Shown here: positions 10,502 to 34,734 of the stretch, one piece after another | Numbering within the stretch: position 1 is the first letter of the stretch | Layout of the letters: the number at the start of each line of letters is the position of its first letter | Source: a virus | IMG/VR virus record: IMGVR_UViG_3300045988_113345 | Coordinates: 1 to 38,485 of that record | Direction: 5' to 3' (one strand) | DNA: 38,485 bases | The notes under the pieces: model-generated | Told to the model about the DNA's origin: nothing | Database searches by the model: none | What the model saw: only the letters and a program-made list of their open reading frames with translations | Made by a program: the position numbers and the translations under genes

Positions 10502-11338
10502 TTATGCAGCTTCCTGTCTGAATTCTACAGGAGATAGGCCATTCAGCTTAAGTTTGATGCGTTTGTTGTTGTACCATTCTATGTATTCATGAAGTTCTTC
10601 AATGAAATGCTCGACAGAATGAAATTCCTGCAAATAGAGAAGCTCTGTTTTCAGCAAGCCGAAGAAGTTCTCGGCACAGGCATTGTCAAGACAATTCCCC
10701 TTTCGGGACATACTCTGCCGGATGCCTTTCTCTTTCAGCATTTTCAGATAGTGCTTGTGTTGATACTGCCAGCCTTGGTCTGAATGAAGAATCAGATTTG
10801 TGTTGTCCGGTATTTTTGAAAATGCTTTCTCAAGCATATCCGTTACCTGATTCAAATTCGGATGACGGCTTAAATTGTATGAAATCACTTCGCCATTATA
10901 TAGATCAATGATTGGTGACAGATACAGCTTTATTCCAAACAAAGCAAATTCAGTAACATCCGTTACCCACTTCTGATTTGGCTGATCTGCTTTGAAATTC
11001 CGTTTCAGAAGATTTGGTGCGATTCTGCCGACATTACCCTTGTATGAGTGATACTTGTGCATACGAACACGGCAAAATATGCCCATTTTACGCATCAGTT
11101 TCTGTACAGTCTTGTGATTGATCACAAACTTCTTCTTCAATTCTTTTGTAATTCTCCGATATCCGTAACGCCCTTTGCTTTCCTCATAAATGCGGCGTAT
11201 TTCAGTTTTGATTTCAGCATATCGATCTGGCTTTGGATGATCAAATTGCTTGCTGTAATAGTAATAGGTACTGCGGGGAATATCGGCAATCTCAATGAGC
11301 AGTCCTATTTTATGTTCATGCCTCAGTTCCCATATCAC
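10502..11338 (-). CDS. IS3-family transposase OrfB (DDE/rve catalytic part), expressed as an OrfAB fusion
   Basis: 278-aa ORF in the -1 frame relative to orfA. That frame is open back to the slippery site at 11392. Typical IS3 features: IGLLIEI..., WVTDVTEF, LHSDQGWQY, NACAENFF, LNGLSPVEFR. Confidence 0.9.
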   Translation of the reverse strand: MIWELRHEHKIGLLIEIADIPRSTYYYYSKQFDHPKPDRYAEIKTEIRRIYEESKGRYGYRRITKELKKKFVINHKTVQKLMRKMGIFCRVRMHKYHSYKGNVGRIAPNLLKRNFKADQPNQKWVTDVTEFALFGIKLYLSPIIDLYNGEVISYNLSRHPNLNQVTDMLEKAFSKIPDNTNLILHSDQGWQYQHKHYLKMLKEKGIRQSMSRKGNCLDNACAENFFGLLKTELLYLQEFHSVEHFIEELHEYIEWYNNKRIKLKLNGLSPVEFRQEAA

Positions 11339-11754: not shown

Positions 11755-11776
11755 AACCTCTGAGGGGCTATTTTTT
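11755..11776. terminator. Right half of the IS-disrupted bidirectional terminator
   Basis: AAC (target duplication) + CTCTGAGGGGCT + A + TTTTTT. The rep stop codon is at 11775-11777. Confidence 0.7.
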
Positions 11777-12833
11777 AATATAGGTTGTATGCTGCAGGCT
11801 GGAAAGCATCGCGTTCGAGCATTTTTAAAAAATAAGCAAATCTGTTTTTTATAGGTTTGTTTTCCGCTGCAACATTAAGTGCAGCATATTTTTCACGGAG
11901 ATAAAATTGCTTACCATACAACTCGTTTTTTGTTAGCTTGTCTTTTGGTATGTCGATACGGACAAGTACACGGGCGATTTGCTCCATCTCAGCTTTGTTA
12001 AACTCATAATTGCACCCCTCGGCAAGCGTAGCAAGCCTCTCTGAGCCATAAGTGATTGTCCAGTCAATTCCATCTCGGTCTTCATAAAGCGGCTCTATGG
12101 GGCTGCCAGTGACGTTCTGGGGCGTTTTGAGTATAAATTGTATGCCGGATACTTTGCGACCACGCCGCAGGGCTACATAATCAAAATCAATGTCGGTTTT
12201 TTGGGATAACTCTTTTTGACACTTTTTTAATACCATGGTACTAAAACGCTTGTACTCACTGTATGTGTCCGCCGTGCAGCAGAGCATTTTTTTTAGTTCG
12301 CCAAGCGGTATCGTCCACGCCCCTCGAAAGCGGTTACTCTCTAAATACAAATACAAGATGTAACTGTATCTGGATGTTAAATTGACTACATTTTTAAGAC
12401 GGTATCTCAAATAGCCGATACTCTCAATATTAAAGATGTACTCCATCGCCTCTGGCGAGCATGCAAGTTTGATTGTCCAAAGCCCATCGTCCCCCTGCGT
12501 ACACTCAGCACACGAAAAAAGGGCTATTTTAGTAAATTTGTTTGGTTTGTCAGGGTCTTGGATAGTAACAACCTTAAAAAGGTTGTCAATCCGGTCAGAT
12601 AAATCCTTGTTTTTTATTTGCGTAACGCCCAGCAGCGACTCCAACTCACCCTTATCAAACGTCACACACCGCTCCTCTAGGTTGTGACTATTGATTTTTG
12701 ACAAGTACGCATCCAGTATTTTAAACTCTGCAAGCGTCATTTTAGTTTCGGATAGTGATTGCAGGGGGTTTGACTTTTGTACTAAAAAATTGCAATTGCC
12801 AGAAATTTGTGGTAGTGTTGTTCTTTTTGGCAT
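11775..12833 (-). CDS. Rep_3-type (RepB-like) theta-replication initiator protein
   Basis: 352 aa from ATG 12833 (SD GAGGTGA). Winged-helix pattern MTLAEFKILDAYLSKI..., LTSRYSYILYLYLESNRFRG..IPLGELKKML, YSEYKRFSTMVLKKCQKEL...DIDFDYVALRRGRKVSGIQFILK. Iterons lie immediately upstream. Confidence 0.85.
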   Translation of the reverse strand: MPKRTTLPQISGNCNFLVQKSNPLQSLSETKMTLAEFKILDAYLSKINSHNLEERCVTFDKGELESLLGVTQIKNKDLSDRIDNLFKVVTIQDPDKPNKFTKIALFSCAECTQGDDGLWTIKLACSPEAMEYIFNIESIGYLRYRLKNVVNLTSRYSYILYLYLESNRFRGAWTIPLGELKKMLCCTADTYSEYKRFSTMVLKKCQKELSQKTDIDFDYVALRRGRKVSGIQFILKTPQNVTGSPIEPLYEDRDGIDWTITYGSERLATLAEGCNYEFNKAEMEQIARVLVRIDIPKDKLTKNELYGKQFYLREKYAALNVAAENKPIKNRFAYFLKMLERDAFQPAAYNLY

Positions 12834-12851
12834 GATTATCACCTCATGCTT

Positions 12852-25612: not shown

Positions 25613-26164
25613 TTACTTGCCACCAATTGGATTGCCACCAATTGAAATGGTAAGTGTTTGAAAATCGTCATCCAGAGTTACAGTACAACCCGATTTTGCC
25701 CCTCTTGCTTTAAAATCGCCAGAATAAGTCATGCAGTCGGTTGTGTCACCGTTGCTGGACGGCACGATTGCATAGCTTCGCACAGTTGCAGTGCCTGCAA
25801 ACGACGTTTTCCCTGCTTCACCTTTGACTGTCGTCATATCTACAGTAACGATTCTTCTAACTGCATCTGTTCCAGTAAGTTCGTTTTCGGAAATTTTTAC
25901 AATTTCTTCCAGTGCTTTTTGACCTACATACTGGTCAAAATTATAGTTAATGCTTTCTGCATAGCCTGTGACATCGGTTCTTTCCGTGTCTTCGTCTACA
26001 TACTGGCGACCGTATTCAGTTGCATTCGCGTTAAATGCCTGTGTCGTAAAGCCTTCCAGCCGAACAAACGTAGATTCTCCGCTCTCGGTTGTTGGCTTTA
26101 CCTCCATAAAACTCAGCTTTTCGGAACGCTTCTTAAGCTTTAAGCTATCAATACCTTTACCCAT
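25613..26164 (-). CDS. Major tail protein
   Basis: 183 aa, SD GGAGG. Position upstream of chaperones/TMP. Thr/Gly-rich composition suggesting a beta-rich fold. Confidence 0.7.
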   Translation of the reverse strand: MGKGIDSLKLKKRSEKLSFMEVKPTTESGESTFVRLEGFTTQAFNANATEYGRQYVDEDTERTDVTGYAESINYNFDQYVGQKALEEIVKISENELTGTDAVRRIVTVDMTTVKGEAGKTSFAGTATVRSYAIVPSSNGDTTDCMTYSGDFKARGAKSGCTVTLDDDFQTLTISIGGNPIGGK

Positions 26165-26615
26165 TTTTTAGATACCTCCATGATTCCAAATATGTCAACC
26201 GCATCTCAATTTGATAGCGTGCGGTTGTTTCCGTGACATCGATTGCATAGCCGCCCGATGTCAACTCAATAGACCGGACAGGGCGTAAATCGCCTAAATC
26301 CGGATAAATCCCTGCATCGTCATTGCGTCCAACCCAGTCTGCAAAATCCTCGTAAAATGCGGAGTTTTGGACACTCTGCACTACATCTCTACCGTACGCC
26401 TCCCGGCTGCTAAAAGCAAACTGAAACTGCTTAATTTTAGACCCGTCCACGTATTTTTTTAGCACCGGTTCGCTGGGGAGCACGTCAATGCTGTATTCGA
26501 TTGCATCCGCTCCAACGCGGTCAACGCCTAAAATCCTGCCGTCTTTTAACAGCGGACAGGATGCAATGTAATTGCGTACCGCCTCAATGATTGACAAATT
26601 ATCCACCTCCACCAT
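26157..26615 (-). CDS. Tail completion / tail terminator-like protein
   Basis: 152 aa. Neck-module position directly before the major tail protein. Overlapping start/stop codons with its neighbours. Confidence 0.5.
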   Translation of the reverse strand: MVEVDNLSIIEAVRNYIASCPLLKDGRILGVDRVGADAIEYSIDVLPSEPVLKKYVDGSKIKQFQFAFSSREAYGRDVVQSVQNSAFYEDFADWVGRNDDAGIYPDLGDLRPVRSIELTSGGYAIDVTETTARYQIEMRLTYLESWRYLKNG

Positions 26616-26928
26616 TTAGCTTTTTTTGTGCCCCTCTCATGATGCTCTGTCCGTGGGCGGTCATTGCCCGTTTTACCCAGTATCTGCCACGCTTGCCGGA
26701 CGACAACCCTTTGTAGTACTGTTTGCGTGCGTACGGTGCAAGCCATCGGATGCGACCGCTGCCAATCTTTGTCCCCAAAACGCCAGAATCACGCAGCATG
26801 CCCGTTTTAAATGGGATATACGGGTCACATTTCCGCAGAATCTCGCTGTCAACGTACTTTTGCACAGGTTGCAGCCGCTTTTGTAGCTGCTGCGTCTGCG
26901 GCATAGTGATTTTAAACGTCAAACTCAT
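26599..26928 (-). CDS. HK97 gp10-like head-tail joining protein
   Basis: 109 aa, SD GAGGTGA. ...YIPFKTGMLRDSG...IRWLAPYARKQYYKG resembles the gp10 / minor capsid neck family. Confidence 0.55.
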   Translation of the reverse strand: MSLTFKITMPQTQQLQKRLQPVQKYVDSEILRKCDPYIPFKTGMLRDSGVLGTKIGSGRIRWLAPYARKQYYKGLSSGKRGRYWVKRAMTAHGQSIMRGAQKKLNGGGG

Positions 26929-27311
26929 CCTGCAGTCACCTCGATGTGCTGCACGTCCGCAGAGCCGTAGCGGTAATCTTCCACCGCCATCACTCTTTTT
27001 GCAGTTTCGGGCGGTGTTACATCCTCACAGCGACCACAGACAAGCAAATCGTCCCGTTTTGGCAGATAGTCAGATAGAGATGTTGCAGGGATAACACAAA
27101 ATACTGTGTTTTGCTGCTGCATCGCCGTGCTAGACTGTGCTTGACCGGCTGCATCCTCCCAGTAAACAGACGGGATGAAATGCCGGATGTAGGTTTCCAT
27201 GCGGTTTGCTCCAGCCGTCCGCTCGTAGGCGGTACAGCCAATTTTATTTACATACAATCCTCGTTGCACCCCCTGTATAGTAGCCCTGTACGCCCCAGAT
27301 ACTGCACGCAA
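26925..27311 (-). CDS. Head closure / head-tail adaptor candidate
   Basis: ORF with TTG at 27311 and a 64-nt overlap with the upstream gene. Alternative ATG 27200 has GGAG 8 nt upstream. Start unresolved. Confidence 0.5.
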   Translation of the reverse strand: MRAVSGAYRATIQGVQRGLYVNKIGCTAYERTAGANRMETYIRHFIPSVYWEDAAGQAQSSTAMQQQNTVFCVIPATSLSDYLPKRDDLLVCGRCEDVTPPETAKRVMAVEDYRYGSADVQHIEVTAG

Positions 27312-27673
27312 ATGCGGTATAGATAACTTTGCAAGCCTGCCGTGTTGCCACCCAAAAGAGCAGCTGCAACGTCTGCTGGTGTACTGTAGCTGACGCTATA
27401 TTTCCCGATGGTTTCGGCAGTTTTTGCACCCTTGCCGCCTGCAAGCATTCCATTTTTCGCATCCAGAAATAACGTCCACGCCTCAGATAAAGCACAACAG
27501 CAATTCTTCACTTGCTCGATGTATGCGTCTGGGATACCGTTTTGCAGTCGTCCAAATGTGATACTGTCCAGGTACTCCGATGCACGGGCGGCAGCCGTGC
27601 GAAATGCTGCCGCATCCGTGATGGATGTACCACAGTAAAAATCTTGATAATACGGATAATCTGCATAAATCAT
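27248..27673 (-). CDS. gp6-like head-tail connector protein
   Basis: 141 aa. First neck gene after the capsid gene. N-terminus MIYADYPYYQDFYCGTSITDAAAFRTAAARASEYLDSITF is typical of the connector / DNA-packaging family. Confidence 0.6.
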   Translation of the reverse strand: MIYADYPYYQDFYCGTSITDAAAFRTAAARASEYLDSITFGRLQNGIPDAYIEQVKNCCCALSEAWTLFLDAKNGMLAGGKGAKTAETIGKYSVSYSTPADVAAALLGGNTAGLQSYLYRICVQYLGRTGLLYRGCNEDCM

Positions 27674-27753
27674 GCCTTTTCTCGCTCCGTTTCCGGTTTT
27701 TTAACCGGCTTTGGTTTTTGCTTTTTCTGTGGTTTCATGCCAATGGTCTTCAT
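27670..27753 (-). CDS. 27-aa lysine-rich micro-ORF (not in the ORF track)
   Basis: MKTIGMKPQKKQKPKPVKKPETEREKA. SD GAGGGAG 8 nt upstream. Its TGA overlaps the ATG of the next gene (ATGA). Confidence 0.4.
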   Translation of the reverse strand: MKTIGMKPQKKQKPKPVKKPETEREKA

Positions 27754-27766
27754 TTCATCCACTCCC

Positions 27767-28639
27767 TCAGGCGGTCTTATAGGAACAATAAATGCCCTTT
27801 GCGTGATTTTCCAGCACATCGGTCAAGCCATATGTCCGGTAATAAAACGCCCATGCATCCATAGACTGGTTGACTTCCGGAGCAATGATTTTAGATACAA
27901 CGTGCTTCTGCACCTGCAAGACTGCCGCCTTGTCAACAATCATAAAGTTTATATCGCTTGCACCGGTTGCCTTTTTAAATCCGCCTGCCTTTTCGCTGGC
28001 GGATTTGCCGTCCAGTGTATCAATTGCTGTATAAAAGCGGCTCTGCGGTACGGTCACGATGCTTGCAAATCGTTCCATCATTGCCTTGGACTTGTATGTA
28101 TCCATTGCATTAATCATCTGCAGCAATGTCGGCGTTACAAACAAATACCGACCCGTTTCGGTAACTTCCGCTTCATCGAGGGCGATGTTTGCGGTCATGA
28201 TAGCTTCGGTGATGTCCGTCACGGTTGCAAAGGTTTCCTGCTTCTTCTGGATTCCGGTTGTGCCTGCATACTGTGCAAACCGCATTGCATCCATTTCCGG
28301 CACAACCTTTGTTCGCATAAATTCGGCAGACAGCAGACCAAACGCCAGTGCAATAGATTCTTCATCGTCCATCGCATCAACCGCAAACTTTCTGCCACGG
28401 TCGTAGTTTGGCTTTTTGGTTTCCCACTCCAGCTTAACATCTCCGGCAGCGTAGCCCTCTGTACGGCTGTAATCACCCAGTCCGTCCATGTCATACTTTG
28501 GAATCTTAAATTCTCCGGTGTCCTTTGTCATTGTGACAATATCGCTGCCGCTGTCCAGCACCATAGTCTTCGAGGACTGTTTGTAGACCTCGTCCAGCAT
28601 GGTGACGCATTTTGTTGCCAATTCAATTGTATTTGCCAT
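27767..28639 (-). CDS. Major capsid protein
   Basis: 290 aa directly after the scaffolding gene. Assigned by position and size. The long plus-strand ORF opposite it (27512-28687) is treated as a shadow ORF. Confidence 0.8.
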   Translation of the reverse strand: MANTIELATKCVTMLDEVYKQSSKTMVLDSGSDIVTMTKDTGEFKIPKYDMDGLGDYSRTEGYAAGDVKLEWETKKPNYDRGRKFAVDAMDDEESIALAFGLLSAEFMRTKVVPEMDAMRFAQYAGTTGIQKKQETFATVTDITEAIMTANIALDEAEVTETGRYLFVTPTLLQMINAMDTYKSKAMMERFASIVTVPQSRFYTAIDTLDGKSASEKAGGFKKATGASDINFMIVDKAAVLQVQKHVVSKIIAPEVNQSMDAWAFYYRTYGLTDVLENHAKGIYCSYKTA

Positions 28640-28658
28640 TTATTATATCATCCTTTCG

Positions 28659-29177
28659 TTATTTGTCATCTGTCGGCAAGCCCATGATCTTACGCAGACG
28701 CTTGTCAAACGCATCGCCTGTGCTTGTAAAGCCCGGCGTACTGCCCAGAAACGGCTTCGGTGGTTCTTCTGCTGCGAATGCATCCGGACAGGTCTTTTTT
28801 AATTCCTGCACGGTTTCTGTGCCACCTGTCAGGTTGCCCTTGTCGTCAAACTGCAGCTGCTTGCTGATAATCTGGTTGGTCAGATATTCCGCGTAAACAT
28901 CATTTTTCATGCCCTGCTTTCGCACGAACGCTGCCACGTTGTCCCGATATTCCTTTGATTTGCGGTCAGCCTCTGCCTGTTCATACTTTTGTTGCCACTC
29001 TGCAGCTGATTGTTTGATGCCGTCAATATCCATCTTTTCAAAGGACGACAGCTTTTCCGCTGTTTCTTTCAGACTGGTTCTCGCTGCGTCAAGCTGTTCC
29101 TGCAGGGCAGTGTATTCCGCTGCGGAATAGGTCTTTTCCGGCTGTTCTGCCTCCTGCTGTTTGGCTTCTTCTGCCAT
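28659..29177 (-). CDS. Capsid scaffolding protein (DUF4355-like)
   Basis: 172 aa. Glu/Gln/Ala/Lys-rich coiled coil MAEEAKQQEAEQPEKTYSAAEYTALQEQLDAART... upstream of the capsid gene. Confidence 0.75.
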   Translation of the reverse strand: MAEEAKQQEAEQPEKTYSAAEYTALQEQLDAARTSLKETAEKLSSFEKMDIDGIKQSAAEWQQKYEQAEADRKSKEYRDNVAAFVRKQGMKNDVYAEYLTNQIISKQLQFDDKGNLTGGTETVQELKKTCPDAFAAEEPPKPFLGSTPGFTSTGDAFDKRLRKIMGLPTDDK

Positions 29178-29208
29178 TTTCGCAACTCCTTTCTATTTTT
29201 TTGATATC

Positions 29209-29234
29209 AAAAAAGCACCTGATTGCTCAGATGC
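29209..29234 (-). terminator. Intrinsic terminator (copy 1 of a repeated terminator)
   Basis: Minus strand GCAUCUGA-GCAA-UCAGGUGC + U6. Confidence 0.75.
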
Positions 29235-29328
29235 CGATTTGTTAATAATATAAGAACGCCGTACCCACAGGCTTGTTTGTTCTTGGTTTCCACCCTCCGC
29301 CAGTTTTTGCCCATGGTCGGGGCGGTGA

Positions 29329-29793
29329 TTACTCTACAATGTGCCAGTCCTCTGCCAGCATATCGGTCTGACTTGCAAGCCAGCCTACAACAAGCTGTTT
29401 CTGTGCTGTATACATCGCTATACTATCAAGGACTTTTGGAGTATGCTCTGCAATTCCGTCACCGTAGCACTCAGTAATTGAATTGTGAATACACTTGCCA
29501 TTGATAAGAATGAGATGCATTCCTTTGCCGTTCCAGCCTTTTCGAGCCATTTTACAGCCAAGTTTAAGCAACTCAATAGCGTGACCAAAGTTCATTTCTC
29601 CTGACTTTTTATAAGCCGCTTCAAATGTAGCTTTTGGCGACCATGATTCATAGCCGTCTGAGTATCTTACAAGATATCCCTCGTCAGTAGGGTTCTCATC
29701 AGCAGGAATAGTCCAACCTCTGTACTTGTTGTAATCGCCTCTTGTCATAGGCTCTGCATCAATTCTCTTTGTGCCGATATAGCTTTCAAACAT
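29329..29793 (-). CDS. DUF2829 (Tad2-like) domain protein with extra N-terminal domain
   Basis: 154 aa from ATG 29793 (SD AAAGGAGAAAG). C-terminal MNFGHAIELLKLGCKMARKGWNGKGMHL...VVGWLASQTDMLAEDWHIVE matches the DUF2829 signature. The N-terminal 65 aa (…AEPMTRGDYNKYRGW…EGYLVRYSDGYESWSPKATFEAAY) form a separate small phage domain. Confidence 0.75.
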   Translation of the reverse strand: MFESYIGTKRIDAEPMTRGDYNKYRGWTIPADENPTDEGYLVRYSDGYESWSPKATFEAAYKKSGEMNFGHAIELLKLGCKMARKGWNGKGMHLILINGKCIHNSITECYGDGIAEHTPKVLDSIAMYTAQKQLVVGWLASQTDMLAEDWHIVE

Positions 29794-29817
29794 ATGTTCT
29801 TTCTCCTTTCGGACATG

Positions 29818-29840
29818 AAAAAAGCACCTCATTGAGATGC
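29818..29840 (-). terminator. Intrinsic terminator (copy 2 of the repeated terminator)
   Basis: Minus strand GCAUCUC-AAU-GAGGUGC + U6. Shares GCATCT.A...GGTGCTTTTTT with 29209-29234. Confidence 0.7.
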
Positions 29841-29855
29841 TTTAGTCAACTGTTT

Positions 29856-30176
29856 TTATGAAATAAATCCCTTTGCTTCTTTTATAATCTTTGCTGCTTT
29901 CTTCATTAAAGAATTTTCCTCCAGATATTCCAGCCCTTTTATTGTGATTGTTGTTTTTGGCAACACTGTAACGGATGGAAAATCTTCGTCAACATACGTT
30001 TTTATATAAAGATTTTCGATATATCCAGCTTTATGTAATTGAATCAGCAGTTTATTTCTTCTGTTTTCTGAGATTTTCAATCGTTCTGGAGAAATTGCGG
30101 TTTCATCGAAAGTGTCTGAATCCATAGCCGCTTCTAACGCTTTTAGTATCTTGTATATGATTGTAAAATTATTCAT
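29856..30176 (-). CDS. YjcQ-family protein (winged-helix)
   Basis: 106 aa, SD AAGGAG. IIYKILKALEAAMDS...LIQLHKAGYIENL...ITIKGLEYLEENSLMKKA matches the YjcQ pattern. AT-rich. Confidence 0.7.
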   Translation of the reverse strand: MNNFTIIYKILKALEAAMDSDTFDETAISPERLKISENRRNKLLIQLHKAGYIENLYIKTYVDEDFPSVTVLPKTTITIKGLEYLEENSLMKKAAKIIKEAKGFIS

Positions 30177-30191
30177 TTCTGCTCCTTTTTA

Positions 30192-30437
30192 TCAGCAAGC
30201 GTATGTGTATGTTTTTGGAAAATTATTTTCCTTTATGAATTTTTGAATCATGGTGATGGCATTACCTGTAGAAGAACAAAAACCATTTTGCCCACTGTTT
30301 TTGTAATAGTCAAAAATTGTATTTTTGACATTTTCTATTTCAGTAGTAATCTTTCCAATCATGATTTCATCATTTCTTCCGTACTCATAACACACGAAAC
30401 CATCTTTTATATACAAAAGTCTCATAAATGTCATCAT
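30192..30437 (-). CDS. Hypothetical 81-aa protein (immunity-protein candidate for the MuF C-terminal module)
   Basis: ORF starts 10 nt after the MuF stop. Very AT-rich. No motif recognised. Confidence 0.5.
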   Translation of the reverse strand: MMTFMRLLYIKDGFVCYEYGRNDEIMIGKITTEIENVKNTIFDYYKNSGQNGFCSSTGNAITMIQKFIKENNFPKTYTYAC

Positions 30438-30447
30438 TATTTATCAC

Positions 30448-32124
30448 TCATTTCAATTCATCATAATCCACAATCGCATCTATAGCCGATTGCCAGTCGT
30501 ATTTTAATTCTGAATATGCATGTGCTGTTTCATACGCACATCCAGTTTCTTTCATATACAGAAGTTCTCTTAATTCATGATTAAGCAATAAAATATCTGT
30601 TTCACGAATGTCGGTTCCATTTATTAACCGCTGCCATGCCAAAGCTTGGTCTATCGACGGGTCAAATTTCCGAATACTTCCATCTTTAAACAGATGCTCT
30701 TCAATCATCATATGTGATTTTATGCTTTTTATTTCATCATAGGTGAAATCCGTATTTTTCGTGATAAACTCTATATCTGAATCGTTTTCGCAACATTTTT
30801 TATAGAAATTTTTAGCTTGTTCATCGTATTCAAGAGTTTTCATGAAGTTTTTATCTGTAATTTTTCCACCTGCCTTTATTATACCATCCTTGCCGCCAGA
30901 AGTCAACCCACTTTTCTTTGCAGCATGCACTGCCTTTTGTGCCGTTGACCGATTGAATCCAAGAACCTGTTCCCGGAACCGGTCACGGTCTTGCCCGGTT
31001 TGTCTGCAAAAATCTTTCAGCTTCGCTTCATTGGCTTTCAGGTAGCGTGCTGACCGGTCAAATTCTGCTTGTGCTGTCGCTCTGGTCGCTTCATCTGTGG
31101 CACTGTTCACGCCTTCCTGTGCAGTGACACAACGCCGCTTCCAGGCACGCACTCTTCGTTCCTGTGCCCGCTGCATCTGGCTGATTTCGTATTCTGTGTA
31201 TTTCTCACCGTTCCATGCAATCCGCTTTTCGTCCAGCTGTTCCAATTCTTTTTTGGTATAGTTCGGCGTGGACAGCCCCGGAAAGTATGGATGCCAGTCA
31301 TGACGGCAGTTCCAGCCCCGAAAACCATCGCCGTCACCATAGCCAATACCACGCAGTGACCAGACTTTTAACCCGTCAATCGTCTTGCCTACATCCTTAC
31401 CTGTCAAACTTACAAGCTGCCCCTGCCACTTTGCATGCTCCGGTCTTGCACCGCTGTGGGCGGTGATCTCCATCAAATAGCAGTCGTTGTCCTCTGCGTT
31501 GGTCTTGCTGATCTCTGCTGCCGTCTGCCCGACACCTGTCAACGCCGCACGGCGGATTGCAACATCCAGCTTGTCAACGTGTCCGGATGGATATGTGACT
31601 GACAAGCCGCCCTTTGCAGCTTGTTTTAGTGTGCTGCGGATTGCCTCTTGATAGCTAAACGCCCCACTTGTAATCTGCATGTAGGCGTCATTGCAAGCCT
31701 GATAAAATGCACGCTGCGTGGTCAGTGCTGTAGTCTTTGTGAGATTATCCATCACGCCCATGGTCTTTTTAAAACCAGCCTCTAGCACCTGCCGCAGGCT
31801 GTCCGATTGCCGGATGTCAACCGTTGCAATACCGGCTTGCCTGTAAGCCTGATTGTCAATCTCTACAGCCGTCGTGCCTGCATCCTCAAATAACGCCCTA
31901 ACCTGTGCCGTGCATGCGTCTGTGCGTTGTGCAATCAGTTGTAAGATGTCCTCGTACAGCAAACCAGCCTCTTGTAACATCTCTGCTTGATGTTTGGTTG
32001 CCTCGGATACAAAGCCCATTCGCAGGATGCGTTTCACCATCGCTGACAAAATCGCATCTTCCAAGCGTGCGTATACTGCAAGTACAGCGTCCGTGCATGT
32101 CTCATAGTAAATTGGCGGCAGCAT
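30448..32124 (-). CDS. MuF/SPP1 gp7-like minor head protein fused to an unassigned ~150-aa C-terminal module
   Basis: 558 aa. MuF core ...TAHSGARPEHAKWQGQ...GWNCRHDWHPY. After a Gly/Lys linker (aa ~405-420) comes an AT-rich-encoded module ...FDPSIDQALAWQRLINGTDIRETDILLLNHELRELLYMKETGCAYETAHAY... Confidence 0.8.
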   Translation of the reverse strand: MLPPIYYETCTDAVLAVYARLEDAILSAMVKRILRMGFVSEATKHQAEMLQEAGLLYEDILQLIAQRTDACTAQVRALFEDAGTTAVEIDNQAYRQAGIATVDIRQSDSLRQVLEAGFKKTMGVMDNLTKTTALTTQRAFYQACNDAYMQITSGAFSYQEAIRSTLKQAAKGGLSVTYPSGHVDKLDVAIRRAALTGVGQTAAEISKTNAEDNDCYLMEITAHSGARPEHAKWQGQLVSLTGKDVGKTIDGLKVWSLRGIGYGDGDGFRGWNCRHDWHPYFPGLSTPNYTKKELEQLDEKRIAWNGEKYTEYEISQMQRAQERRVRAWKRRCVTAQEGVNSATDEATRATAQAEFDRSARYLKANEAKLKDFCRQTGQDRDRFREQVLGFNRSTAQKAVHAAKKSGLTSGGKDGIIKAGGKITDKNFMKTLEYDEQAKNFYKKCCENDSDIEFITKNTDFTYDEIKSIKSHMMIEEHLFKDGSIRKFDPSIDQALAWQRLINGTDIRETDILLLNHELRELLYMKETGCAYETAHAYSELKYDWQSAIDAIVDYDELK

Positions 32125-33494
32125 CAGCGGTCACCTACGCCAAACAGGCTGTAATCCTCAGGGCTGCCAGCCTCCGGAATCATCTTTTTTGCTTCTTCTT
32201 CCGAGCAGCCGTAATAGCTGCTCAGAAAAATTTCCGGTTTTAAGATGCCTGCTTGTACAAACTGCAACTCTCGCTGCGTCTTTGCATTTACGTCCTCCAG
32301 CACACTGTCACCCCAATCAAAAGCAATCTCAAACTCTGTTGACGGGATAACACCATGATAAAACGCCAGCGTTGCTGCTGCTGTAATCGCTCGCCGCAGG
32401 GCGAATTCCGTCTGCTTTTGCAAGGCAGACACAAATACATAGCTGCGTTGTTTGGACGATTCAATCTCTGTTGCTGTTTTTGCGACCTCTGCAGGCTCTG
32501 ACAACGTACCATAGGCAAGTTGACAAGAAAACTCAATTCGCTGCAAAATCTTATTTAAGCCGTTAAAAAATGATGCATCCCGAATCTCCGGCGAATACGG
32601 CATGATTTTGTCAGAATCATCATCCCCGATGGACAGCATCTTTTTGTATAGCCGCTTATCATGTGCGGAAAGCCGGTCAAATCTGTTGAAAATGTCCTGT
32701 GTCGCAAAGACTGCGGTTTCTTTTGATTCGTATTCCCACAAAATTTCCGACCATAATTGATCCGCCTGAACAATCTGCGGCAGTGCATCCGCAAACACGG
32801 ACACGCCCAAAGCAGAGGTCGGGTCTTTGCTGTTGGGCTTTGGCACACGGAAAAAACCGAACAGCGGCGTTTCTGACTGCACGTTGACCAGCGGCTCTAA
32901 TCCAGCCCACGGCGTTTCTGACAACTCGCAAGGGCTGCCCAACGTGTCTGCATCGTATGCGTGGTAGGTGTAATTTTGGATAATACACTGCTTTTTGTCA
33001 CTGTCATATCCGTGGCACTCAAGCCTTGTGTACCAGTCTGCACCGCTCCGAAACGTATCTGCAAACACGGCGGATTGCATAGACTGGTCAGATGTAAACG
33101 CAATCGGAAACACACGCTGCACTGGCACCCACTCCAACGATACACCGCCGTTTGCAAAATATGGCTTTATCACCATACCACCGCTTGCAAGCCCTGCAGA
33201 AAAGCCAGTTTGCAACGCTGGCAGGTGATTGTCTATCATGGCTTGCAAATAGTTTGCCGTCTTGCTATTTCCAGAAATTTCAATTTTTGACTCTGCAAAA
33301 ATCAACCGTGTAAACTCGGTACAGATTGCTGCTGCAAGATGTAAGCCGTCTTTTTGCTCTCTGCTCTCTGAATTGCCGGAAAACAGCGTTTCCCACTGTT
33401 CAATGCATCCCCTCATTAGTGGAGATATTGCTGTTTTGATATTAAGCGCCGCCTCAATATCTGCATAATTGATTATAAAATCACCCCCAATCAT
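32124..33494 (-). CDS. Portal protein (SPP1 gp6-like)
   Basis: 456 aa from ATG 33494 (the track ORF extends to 33650 inside terL). Lies between TerL and MuF. Confidence 0.85.
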   Translation of the reverse strand: MIGGDFIINYADIEAALNIKTAISPLMRGCIEQWETLFSGNSESREQKDGLHLAAAICTEFTRLIFAESKIEISGNSKTANYLQAMIDNHLPALQTGFSAGLASGGMVIKPYFANGGVSLEWVPVQRVFPIAFTSDQSMQSAVFADTFRSGADWYTRLECHGYDSDKKQCIIQNYTYHAYDADTLGSPCELSETPWAGLEPLVNVQSETPLFGFFRVPKPNSKDPTSALGVSVFADALPQIVQADQLWSEILWEYESKETAVFATQDIFNRFDRLSAHDKRLYKKMLSIGDDDSDKIMPYSPEIRDASFFNGLNKILQRIEFSCQLAYGTLSEPAEVAKTATEIESSKQRSYVFVSALQKQTEFALRRAITAAATLAFYHGVIPSTEFEIAFDWGDSVLEDVNAKTQRELQFVQAGILKPEIFLSSYYGCSEEEAKKMIPEAGSPEDYSLFGVGDR

Positions 33495-34734
33495 CTGTTT
33501 TCCATCCCAAGTGTCGCAGGATGGTATAGCAAAAATACCGGATGTCGTCCATCGCATGATCATTTTCCTTGATAACGGTATCTTGCTGCTTTTTGTCGTC
33601 CCATCGATACAAGCCAAATTCCCGAATGGTGTCCGTGCAAGTATCTGCAATCAGAATCCGCTTTTGTTTCAGCAGGGTCATCGTGTATCGGATGCCGTCA
33701 ATCACGCTGTTATTTGCTTTGCGGACGCTGTAGGCAGCGTGGTGCTGGATACAAGCAATCAAACTTGCGGCAGACGGGTCTACTACAATCTGCTGGATGT
33801 CGTAGCCCTCTGCAAGCCTTGCAATCTCCTGATAATGCTGCTCGTCATCCTTTTGCTTGCCTGCTTTGCGTGCATCATAATAGGATTCTTTAAGTCTCAC
33901 TGCAAAATCATCCTCGACCGCCCACAGCCCGATAGACGTAGGGTTTAGCGTGCCGTAGTCAATAGACAAGTAAAAAACCGCCCTCTCGGACGGTTTATAA
34001 TCATGAACAACGCTAACAGCTGGGTCAAAATTCGGATAGACAAGCCCCTCTGCCACTCGCCACAACCCTAATACATAGCGGTCGTAAAACGCCCCAGCAG
34101 GGTATACAGACGCTGCACGCTGGATTTTTTGTGGTGTCATGATGGGGTTATCCTGCATCGTGAAATGCAGATGCAAAACATCGTTACGCTCGCCATTGTC
34201 CGCCTTTAAAATCCATTGCTGATAAAACCAGTGCTGCGGATTGTCCGGATTGCAGTTAAACCACAACCTTGCATCTCCAACAGACAGCGTTCGGGCAATT
34301 GCCTGATTGACAAACGACTCCGGCATTAAGGCAACCTCATCTAAAAGGACGCCACTCAGCGTGATGCCCTGAACAAGCTTATAAGACGCCTCATCCTTAC
34401 CGCCGAAAACGTGAAATTGGTTTTGCTTGCCGTTGCCTTTGACGGTTAAGATGTGCTTACTGCCACCGATATAGGACACGTTAAAATAATGCGTGATGTC
34501 TGCCATCTGCAACAGCTCCATGATGATGTTACGCTCTGCAGATTGTACCGTGTTGCCGCAGATGCCAAACCGTGCACGGTCAAATGTTGCCATTGCCCAC
34601 AGGATAAACGCACATGCCATGGATGCCGTCTTGCCAGACCGCACAGAACCGTCGCAAATTAAGGCGTATGCATCCGGCTTGTATGCCCATCGAAAGACGG
34701 TTTTTTGCTTTTTGGATAGCTTTGTAAACGTCAT
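33481..34734 (-). CDS. terL: Terminase large subunit
   Basis: 417 aa. Walker A-like DGSVRSGKT near the N-terminus, Walker B-like LSGVLLDEV, C-terminal nuclease-type acidic motifs (HAMDDIRY). ATGA overlap with the upstream gene. Confidence 0.9.
   Translation of the reverse strand: MTFTKLSKKQKTVFRWAYKPDAYALICDGSVRSGKTASMACAFILWAMATFDRARFGICGNTVQSAERNIIMELLQMADITHYFNVSYIGGSKHILTVKGNGKQNQFHVFGGKDEASYKLVQGITLSGVLLDEVALMPESFVNQAIARTLSVGDARLWFNCNPDNPQHWFYQQWILKADNGERNDVLHLHFTMQDNPIMTPQKIQRAASVYPAGAFYDRYVLGLWRVAEGLVYPNFDPAVSVVHDYKPSERAVFYLSIDYGTLNPTSIGLWAVEDDFAVRLKESYYDARKAGKQKDDEQHYQEIARLAEGYDIQQIVVDPSAASLIACIQHHAAYSVRKANNSVIDGIRYTMTLLKQKRILIADTCTDTIREFGLYRWDDKKQQDTVIKENDHAMDDIRYFCYTILRHLGWKTDDWG

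Follow-up and report, generated by a model that had tools for sequence, protein, structure and literature searches.

The 38,485-nucleotide viral sequence analysed here (IMG/VR record IMGVR_UViG_3300045988_113345; the whole stretch is hereafter called the window) carries a gene on its minus strand, at 29329-29793, in which an N-terminal accessory domain (the N-domain) is joined to a C-terminal Tad2 (DUF2829) domain. We consider it fairly probable that the product is a two-domain sponge for immune signals, built on a Tad2 tetramer whose assembly is assisted by the N-domain, that its gene is the cargo of a slot in which counter-defence genes are swapped, and that it is expressed by read-through of the terminator hairpin lying ahead of it. 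Taken by itself the gene is one more member of the Tad2 family and will not surprise a specialist; the idea of a cassette, put forward in an initial annotation made from the sequence alone, was right in spirit. The features on which the argument rests are as follows.

29329-29793, minus strand: two-domain Tad2-like gene, 154 amino acids (aa) plus stop codon (open reading frame (ORF) and start; PF11195; phrog_872)
29332-29595, minus strand: Tad2 (PF11195/DUF2829) domain, aa 67-154 (Pfam, PDB sequence matches, Foldseek, contact residues)
29596-29793, minus strand: N-terminal accessory domain, aa 1-66, beta-rich with weak Tudor/SH3-like fold matches
29802-29809, minus strand: ribosome-binding site (RBS) AAAGGAGA of the Tad2-like gene, read off the sequence
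29818-29843, minus strand: T1, intrinsic-terminator hairpin AAAGCAUCUC-AAU-GAGGUGCUUUUUU, left border of the variable slot
29236-29328, minus strand: conserved element (CE), consisting of hairpin P1, a G-rich single strand (AAACUGGCGGAGGG.GGAA) and hairpin P2/P3
29209-29235, minus strand: T2, intrinsic-terminator hairpin GGCAUCUGA-GCAA-UCAGGUGCU with U-run, forming the 3' end of the CE unit

The Tad2 domain

The protein begins with MFESY, a start that is shared by the public gene calls for the identical protein, which is present on 18 contigs. A longer ORF of 167 aa starting at 29832 overruns the upstream hairpin and was discarded as an artefact. The assignment of the C-terminal part to DUF2829, already made in the initial annotation, is well supported by profile, sequence and model comparisons. 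PF11195 (Tad2-like, formerly DUF2829) matches residues 67-153 over profile positions 1-73 of 73 (E=4.8e-23; 81.9 bits against a gathering cut-off of 25 bits), and the whole 154-aa protein matches phrog_872 with E=7e-53. Sequences in the PDB that match residues 66-154 are those of SptTad2, SPO1 Tad2, HgmTad2/AcrIIA7 and ModTad2, with E values from 3e-15 to 7e-13. An AlphaFold2 monomer model built with 60 homologues has a mean predicted local distance difference test score (pLDDT) of 84.5, and when this predicted monomer was compared with the PDB by Foldseek, all of the significant matches (24/24) were Tad2 structures (probability 1.0; template-modelling (TM) score to target 0.57-0.79).

The ligand pocket appears to be retained as well. 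SPO1 Tad2 holds 1''-3' glycocyclic ADP-ribose (gcADPR) via W25, N26, W73 and D79 together with T78, S76, I63 and T65 (bioRxiv 10.1101/2023.05.01.538930), and the equivalents in HgmTad2 are W21, N22, W87, S90, T92 and D93 (Li et al., bioRxiv 10.1101/2023.11.15.567273). SPO1 residues W25, N26, W73, S76, T78 and D79 correspond to W87, N88, W138, S141, T143 and D144 of the window protein, while M127 and T129 match I63 and T65. Aligned with the SPO1, Hgm and Spt proteins, W87, N88, G89, W138, S141, Q142, T143 and D144 are invariant, and among 60 family members the same is true of W87, N88, W138, S141, Q142 and D144. The initial annotation had proposed that the pocket residues and a predicted structure be compared with solved Tad2 proteins, and on both counts the protein agrees with the family.

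SPO1 Tad2 (gp34.65; PDB 8SME/8SMF/8SMG) resembles the window protein in its sequence (~40% domain identity), predicted fold, contact residues and short beta2-beta3 insertion, but is a single domain of 89 aa, to which the window protein adds 66 aa at the N-terminus. HgmTad2/'AcrIIA7' (PDB 8KBI-8KBM) and SptTad2 (8WJD) share the gcADPR-binding core. HgmTad2, however, has a second pocket for cyclic dinucleotides (cGG/cGAMP) on a 42-aa beta2-beta5 insertion, with R31, S47, F70 and N85 (bioRxiv 10.1101/2023.11.15.567273). In the window protein the beta2-beta3 insertion is ~27 aa long, and I97 and V136 stand in the alignment where HgmTad2 has R31 and N85. The protein is therefore a member of the SPO1 type rather than the HgmTad2 type, and the additional cyclic-dinucleotide pocket is not expected.

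By analogy with its solved relatives, the domain most likely forms the canonical Tad2 tetramer and would sequester the ADP-ribose signals made by TIR enzymes, namely 1''-3' and 1''-2' gcADPR and possibly related molecules such as histidine-ADP-ribose (His-ADPR). Such sequestration would keep a Thoeris-type effector off.

A swap slot between conserved borders

To describe the site at which the gene lies, we recorded the gene immediately 5' of CE in 131 non-redundant related Ruminococcus-phage loci from viral, genome and metagenome collections, with the following result.

Sequestin: 38 of 131 loci
Single-domain Tad2: 33 of 131 loci
Another gene: 32 of 131 loci
Nothing (empty site): 25 of 131 loci
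N-domain + Tad2: 3 of 131 loci

By these counts a known anti-Thoeris sponge is found in 70% of the occupied sites, and small genes without known function in the other ~30%. Sequestin (PF21825), which binds 3'cADPR (Tal et al., bioRxiv 10.1101/2025.07.12.664507), is like the window gene in using the same slot and in also being found fused to the N-domain, but its all-helical dimeric fold is unrelated to Tad2 and none is present in the window. Even among close relatives, with capsid proteins 95-99% identical, the stretch between the genes for MuF (a minor capsid protein) and the scaffold protein is completely different from phage to phage, the cargo comprising two kinds of single-domain Tad2, a PF21825 gene, a lipoprotein-like ORF and other ORFs.

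The borders of the slot are conserved. On the left, the T1 stem is constant and its loop hypervariable in most related loci, and the junction T1-CATGCC-GAAAGGAG precedes the cargo genes of relatives (UUUUUUCAUGCC followed by GAAAGGAG in most loci). On the right, CE, T2 and the scaffold RBS, which T2 directly precedes on its 5' side, are kept behind every cargo, in part at 61% capsid-protein identity. Where there is no cargo, T1 abuts CE directly (...GGTGCTTTTTTCATG|CCCCGACC...). In two loci whose flanks are ~70% identical to the window (L003 and L006) the coding sequence of the window gene is present with a single synonymous difference. On one side identity falls away within the loop of T1; on the other it is ~93-95% from the start of CE and is lost ~165 nucleotides (nt) into the scaffold gene, the block shared with the otherwise divergent phage of L003 being ~95% identical. 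This is the pattern that recombination within conserved borders would produce. We suggest that the borders, T1 with the RBS junction on the left and CE with T2 on the right, probably act as homology arms through which co-infecting or resident relatives would exchange single-domain Tad2, Sequestin, N-domain + Acb4, other small genes or nothing at all.

The anti-signalling hot spot of N4-like phages (bioRxiv 10.64898/2026.06.04.730250), like anti-defence islands, is similar in that Tad2, Acb4, Sequestin and genes without known function alternate at a fixed position, and phage N4 itself has an N-domain + DUF2829 gene. The slot differs from the N4 hot spot in belonging to the late head-morphogenesis operon of Ruminococcus siphophages and in being bracketed by a hairpin and a putative structured RNA.

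The cargo without known function includes a 55-aa protein ending ...GYAVLCSAMAE.CNAITQKA (or ...AIAQNP), found in the slot of ~18 of the 131 loci (L023, L026, L027, L048, L064, L097, L204 and others). Further ORFs of this kind are one of 93 aa (...KKFENFVVK), ORFs of 120 and 165 aa (...ERIFR) and others ending ...YRLDNEE. We regard them as candidate new anti-defence genes.

The N-terminal domain

Residues 1-66 match no Pfam family, and searched alone the N-domain matches PHROGs other than phrog_872. In the AlphaFold2 model it has a pLDDT of ~81-94, with strands at 3-6, 10-17, 38-43 and 49-53 and two helices; Foldseek matches to CarD, Mfd-RID and Tudor domains are weak, and a search against PDB sequences gave a chance match only. 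The initial annotation was right to see here a distinct, separable module of ~65 aa. Its impression that the fusion is unusual does not hold, since the architecture is very common. At least 7963 homologues of the N-domain + Tad2 protein were found, of which the best 120 are all full length, and in 91 GenBank phage records the match spans 80% or more of the protein. The N-domain alone matches 156 records of an INPHARED-based phage collection, phage N4 included, and a profile search with it returned 5802 cluster representatives (50% identity).

Its partners were counted among the best 144 of these 5802 representatives. Tad2 accounts for 41, Sequestin (PF21825) for 26, Acb4 (PF13876) for 16, and the Acb2/Tad1 hairpin and OmpA for 1 each, the remaining representatives having no second Pfam domain; within this sample the recurrent Pfam partners, Tad2, Sequestin and Acb4, are all sponge domains. 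The initial annotation had also stated that the N-domain occurs alone, and separate ORFs do exist, but four of the five inspected adjoin a sponge gene or are frameshifted from one. In one locus (L152) the order of separate genes is Acb4, N-domain, Tad2; in another (L156) N-domain and Acb4 lie between MuF and scaffold; in a third (L154) a separate N-domain ORF is followed by a 111-aa gene without known function. In L150 (2634-2737) two overlapping frames encode the N-domain and Sequestin, and a one-base change in an A-run would join them. The split in L150 may reflect an error in sequencing, a pseudogene, or slippage giving short and fused products.

The Tad2 core of the window protein is also found with no N-domain ahead of it, in the 95-aa alleles of L036, L069 and L076, and the N-domain is found with a different Tad2 core in L107 (153 aa; SQAD instead of SQTD); the N-domain is therefore an optional, shuffled module. 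The Tad2 alleles are themselves mosaic, one single-domain allele being the window protein from GWNGKG on with the N-terminal helix of another allele. Judging from such alignments, intragenic recombination at conserved motifs seems to be frequent.

What the N-domain does is suggested by a homologue in RyR Tad (gp68 of Pectobacterium phage vB_PatP_CB1). The N-domain matches residues 1-65 of gp68 in BLASTP with E=1e-7 and 30% identity over residues 2-60, and the motifs PMT.G, EGYLV.YS and SWSP..F are common to both. RyR Tad is like the window protein in placing this domain ahead of a gcADPR sponge domain, and unlike it in that the sponge domain is helical and like Repeat12 of the ryanodine receptor rather than Tad2; RyR Tad is dimeric. 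The isolated domain, gp68_N, has no activity against type I Thoeris and crystallises as a domain-swapped dimer (bioRxiv 10.64898/2026.06.04.730250). This single experimental datum, by analogy, points to dimerisation. The N-domain is joined directly to helix alpha1 of Tad2, the helix that mediates tetramerisation in SPO1 Tad2 (bioRxiv 10.1101/2023.05.01.538930). It most likely dimerises, and would thereby stabilise or cross-link the Tad2 tetramer.

Identity of the N-domain with Lockin was considered and rejected: the description and residues differ, and Lockin is absent from INPHARED, a database of complete phage genomes, whereas the N-domain is present in 156 records of the collection built on it. 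The N-domain motifs were not found in the supplements of the 2025 sponge-diversity paper. A two-domain homologue is also encoded by the P22-like coliphage Kapi1 (MT813197.1, 17438-17959; L157), where it is flanked by the lysis genes and the gene for the small terminase, another late-operon accessory position.

Expression of the sponge gene

Between the T-run of T1, which ends at 29818, and the start codon at 29793 there are ~25 nt, which hold the RBS only. Scanning with a sigma70 consensus revealed no promoter in the interval from T1 to the start codon; in the relatives, the stretch upstream of T1 has no conserved -35/-10 pair. The interval leaves no room for a private promoter. Expression probably comes from the late head-gene transcript when T1 is read through, just before the scaffold and capsid genes are reached. 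A site just ahead of these genes would pair the sponge with a trigger of the defence, the major capsid protein being the trigger of staphylococcal Thoeris (PMC11312562).

The morons of lambdoid phages are units of promoter, gene and terminator. The window gene is like them in being an accessory gene among essential late genes with a terminator after it, but no private promoter was detected directly upstream of it and the terminators around it are part of the backbone, not of the insert. The description of the gene as a moron or cassette thus stands as far as the exchangeable cargo goes, as the coding sequence in L003 and L006 illustrates, and fails in that the unit is not self-contained. Nor does it resemble an integron cassette, as the neighbouring genes encode portal, MuF, scaffold and capsid proteins and a scan of ORFs in the window detected no integrase.

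Alternative explanations

The initial annotation had noticed that the gene is flanked by two similar terminators, and this is borne out: both are predicted hairpins (T1, stem 29843-29821 and T-run 29823-29818, -14.5 kcal/mol, z -4.1; T2, stem 29235-29214 and T-run to 29209, -16 kcal/mol, z -5.7) with a common outer stem and U-run, GCATCT...AGGTGCTTTTTT. Dozens of related phages keep the stem that the two have in common; that the window contains exactly two copies of GGTGCTTTTTT is, taken alone, not significant. From this likeness it had been suggested that the gene was inserted by duplication of a terminator, T1 and T2 (GCAUCU...AGGUGCUUUUUU in both) being the two copies and the spacer the 3' untranslated region (UTR) of the cassette. 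Two loci (L056 and L082) could be taken in the same sense, with two tandem T1-type hairpins 5' of CE, each before a small gene, in an array-like arrangement; hairpin-bounded units can evidently be reiterated, here with two T1 copies around a small ORF. However, the 25 empty sites among the 131 loci already hold T1, CE and T2 in the same order, and CE with T2 is retained behind unrelated cargo, in part even where capsid-protein identity is down to 61%. Moreover, T1 and T2 are consistently unlike each other in their inner stems and flanks, and T2 has compensatory substitutions in L019 and L087 while T1 is unchanged there. Because the same series is present at empty sites and around unrelated cargo, T1, CE and T2 are backbone and not the footprint of an insertion, and the spacer is a conserved element of its own rather than part of the cassette. 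Insertion by duplication is contradicted by the empty sites and is not needed, and we consider it highly improbable.

The protein, too, might be read in other ways. The N-domain could be an independent second anti-defence module, either a sponge for another signal or an inhibitor of a defence protein, so that two steps or systems are blocked, as in the known Tad2-Acb4, Tad2-Sequestin and Acb4-Sequestin fusions. Its fusion pattern, with Tad2, Sequestin, Acb4 and the Acb2/Tad1 hairpin and a single OmpA as the one other Pfam partner in the sample of 144, matches that used to discover Sequestin (bioRxiv 10.1101/2025.07.12.664507), and the size of the family, the many conserved aromatic residues and the separate genes in L152, between Acb4 and Tad2, and in L156, beside Acb4 in the MuF-scaffold slot, would all suit such a role. 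Set against this, gp68_N alone is inactive against type I Thoeris and serves dimerisation in the crystal, the N-domain is net acidic as read from its sequence and has no match to any solved sponge, and some 'stand-alone' copies look like frameshifted fusions, as in L150. A second module of this kind is, in our judgement, unlikely. That the protein is an anti-CRISPR of the AcrIIA7 type is suggested by some GenBank phage records, which annotate homologues as 'anti-CRISPR protein', and by the history of HgmTad2, which was first reported as AcrIIA7 and keeps this name in its PDB entries. Inhibition of Cas9 by HgmTad2 or other Tad2 proteins was, however, not reproduced in vitro or in vivo, and sponge activity was demonstrated instead (Li et al., bioRxiv 10.1101/2023.11.15.567273), so this reading can hardly be correct. 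Our preferred explanation, a Tad2 sponge assembled with the help of the N-domain and carried in a swap slot, has several observations weighing against it. D67 and H71, which coordinate water in SPO1 Tad2, are not conserved, the window protein having Q131 and V136; the N-domain as a separate ORF fits an autonomous function better than a pure role in assembly; and the conserved left border, at ~25-45 nt, is short for homologous recombination. Furthermore, sponges are thought to need early and abundant expression (bioRxiv 10.1101/2023.05.01.538930), and the gene lies behind a strong-looking terminator in a late head operon and lacks a recognisable promoter.

The conserved element

The spacer between the stop codon and T2 had been described as a 94-nt GC-rich untranslated stretch. 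It is indeed untranslated, but measures 93 nt (29236-29328) and its GC content is only modestly above that of the window (0.495 against a mean of 0.455). An alignment of 46 distinct copies, in which pairing was tested against shuffles and slid controls, contains the helices P1 (GCCC/GGGC), P2 (AAGAAC/GUUCUU), P3 (GCC/GGC) and T2. In this alignment 97.6% of the cells are paired, compared with 29-43% in the slid controls, and 13 pairs change on both sides, compared with 1.9 in the shuffles. A larger alignment of 72 distinct copies gives 98.5% pairing and both-sided changes in 15 of 22 pairs (P2, 4 of 6; T2, 9 of 9), figures that lean towards structure because this alignment was fitted to a covariance model. 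G.U pairs in T2 and P3 are sensible on the minus (sense) strand only. The invariance of P1 and of the G-rich strand AAACUGGCGGAGGG(N)GGAA is partly a matter of ascertainment, because the search patterns fixed both. The P2 helix that the alignments support was found by eye, and folding of the single CE sequence is unremarkable (z -0.31). A long-range stem, CCAUGGGC/GCCUGUGG, proposed by RNAalifold was dropped because its variants do not covary.

With the covariance model, CE is matched at 29202-29326 (137.6 bits) as the sole copy in the window; other matches are plain terminators, and the possibility of a repeated element was discarded. A coding role was likewise rejected, as 1-nt and 2-nt indels among relatives break every reading frame. 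Rfam gave no match at gathering thresholds in the whole window and chance-level matches only (E>2.9) in 29100-29900, no antisense target for the invariant G-rich stretch was found in the window, and a literature search on the motif string returned unrelated papers only. CE is absent from the distant relatives L017 and L018. From its alignments, CE with T2 behaves like a structured RNA with covarying helices for which there is no Rfam family.

Four functions may be considered for it. The candidate we prefer is an element that acts in processing or stabilising the scaffold-capsid message, an idea taken from Bacillus, where 5' hairpins and non-translated Shine-Dalgarno stabilisers are known. Next come insulation or attenuation together with T2, and a small RNA released from the 3' UTR; the candidate we favour least is that CE is merely the right-hand homology arm for the exchange of cargo. 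A wider proposal, which we offer tentatively, is that CE and T2 are a new class of structured phage RNA at the 3' border of the sponge slot, which would control or stabilise the scaffold-capsid message or would itself take part in counter-defence, and which would form with T1 a recombination frame for the swapping of sponge genes among Ruminococcus phages. In the same proposal the N-domain would have its own function and be a general partner module for five or more unrelated families of sponges.

Variation in CE was seen at several loci. In L204 and L142 a sigma70 promoter that is perfect or nearly so (TTGACA-17-TATAAT or TATGAT) takes the place of T2, and a different leader follows this promoter. 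In L146, L186, L180 and L217 CE ends after the 5' arm of P3 and unrelated DNA follows, in some cases within long chromosomal contigs; these truncated copies may be prophage remnants or breakpoints inside the element.

Significance

The slot offers a catalogue, compiled by nature, of counter-defence genes that replace one another at a single, sharply delimited site, in phages of an abundant human-gut genus. Its genes without known function, such as that for the 55-aa protein ending AITQKA, are ready candidates for new anti-defence proteins, and an N-domain whose recurrent Pfam partners, among the representatives scanned, are all sponge domains offers a target for learning what sponges need besides a binding pocket. 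The most novel item is CE, as a candidate new RNA motif with no Rfam family ahead of the scaffold and capsid genes. Lying beside a sponge gene and ahead of the capsid gene, whose product is a Thoeris trigger, it offers a testable link between expression of the sponge and of the trigger. The sponge-swap slot with its cargo, the repertoire of N-domain partners and the CE RNA are therefore all worth following up.

Genomic neighbourhood

The initial annotation had placed the gene between MuF and the scaffold gene, which is the right region, but MuF is not its direct neighbour, as an 81-aa ORF and a YjcQ-family gene intervene. The surrounding features are as follows.

28659-29177, minus strand: scaffold gene (PF06810), whose first ~165 nt lie in the block ~95% identical to L003
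29856-30176, minus strand: YjcQ-family gene (PF09639; E=1.1e-24), GC 0.318, accessory, 5' of T1
30192-30437, minus strand: 81-aa ORF (orf81) with no assigned function and a GC content of 0.30, following directly on the C-terminal extension of MuF
30448-32124, minus strand: MuF/minor capsid protein 2 (PF06152, aa 4-373), extended at its C-terminus by 185 aa of low GC
30878-30906, minus strand: promoter-like site with the sequence TTGACT-17-TATAAT and a TG, located in the low-GC extension of MuF (consensus match only)

GC content from ~29330 to 31000 is low, at 0.30-0.43 compared with ~0.50 in the head genes. Within this stretch the MuF extension (30448-31000), orf81 and the YjcQ-family gene make up an island of 0.30-0.38 that is closed by T1, and that by analogy resembles the arrangement of a MuF-fused polymorphic toxin with its immunity gene. 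The 185-aa extension varies among relatives, and family searches gave no assignment for either the extension or orf81. The promoter-like site (30906-30878) has 11 of 12 matches to a sigma70-type consensus and an extended -10; it would read towards orf81, YjcQ and T1, and could feed transcripts to T1.

Elsewhere in the window, an IS3-family-type transposase (rve, HTH_21) at 10502-11338 on the minus strand is inserted in the phage genome and adjoins a Rep3-type replication initiator at 11775-12842. The phage may live as an integrated prophage or as a phage-plasmid. No close relative at the DNA level was found among GenBank phages. Over the 8 kb compared (26000-34000) the window matches a 38.4-kb human-gut metagenome contig at 100%, and related elements are present in assemblies of Ruminococcus callidus, R. 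bromii, Ruminococcus sp. CAG:403 and Oscillospiraceae. Related CE-bearing elements sit in contigs of 100-220 kb.

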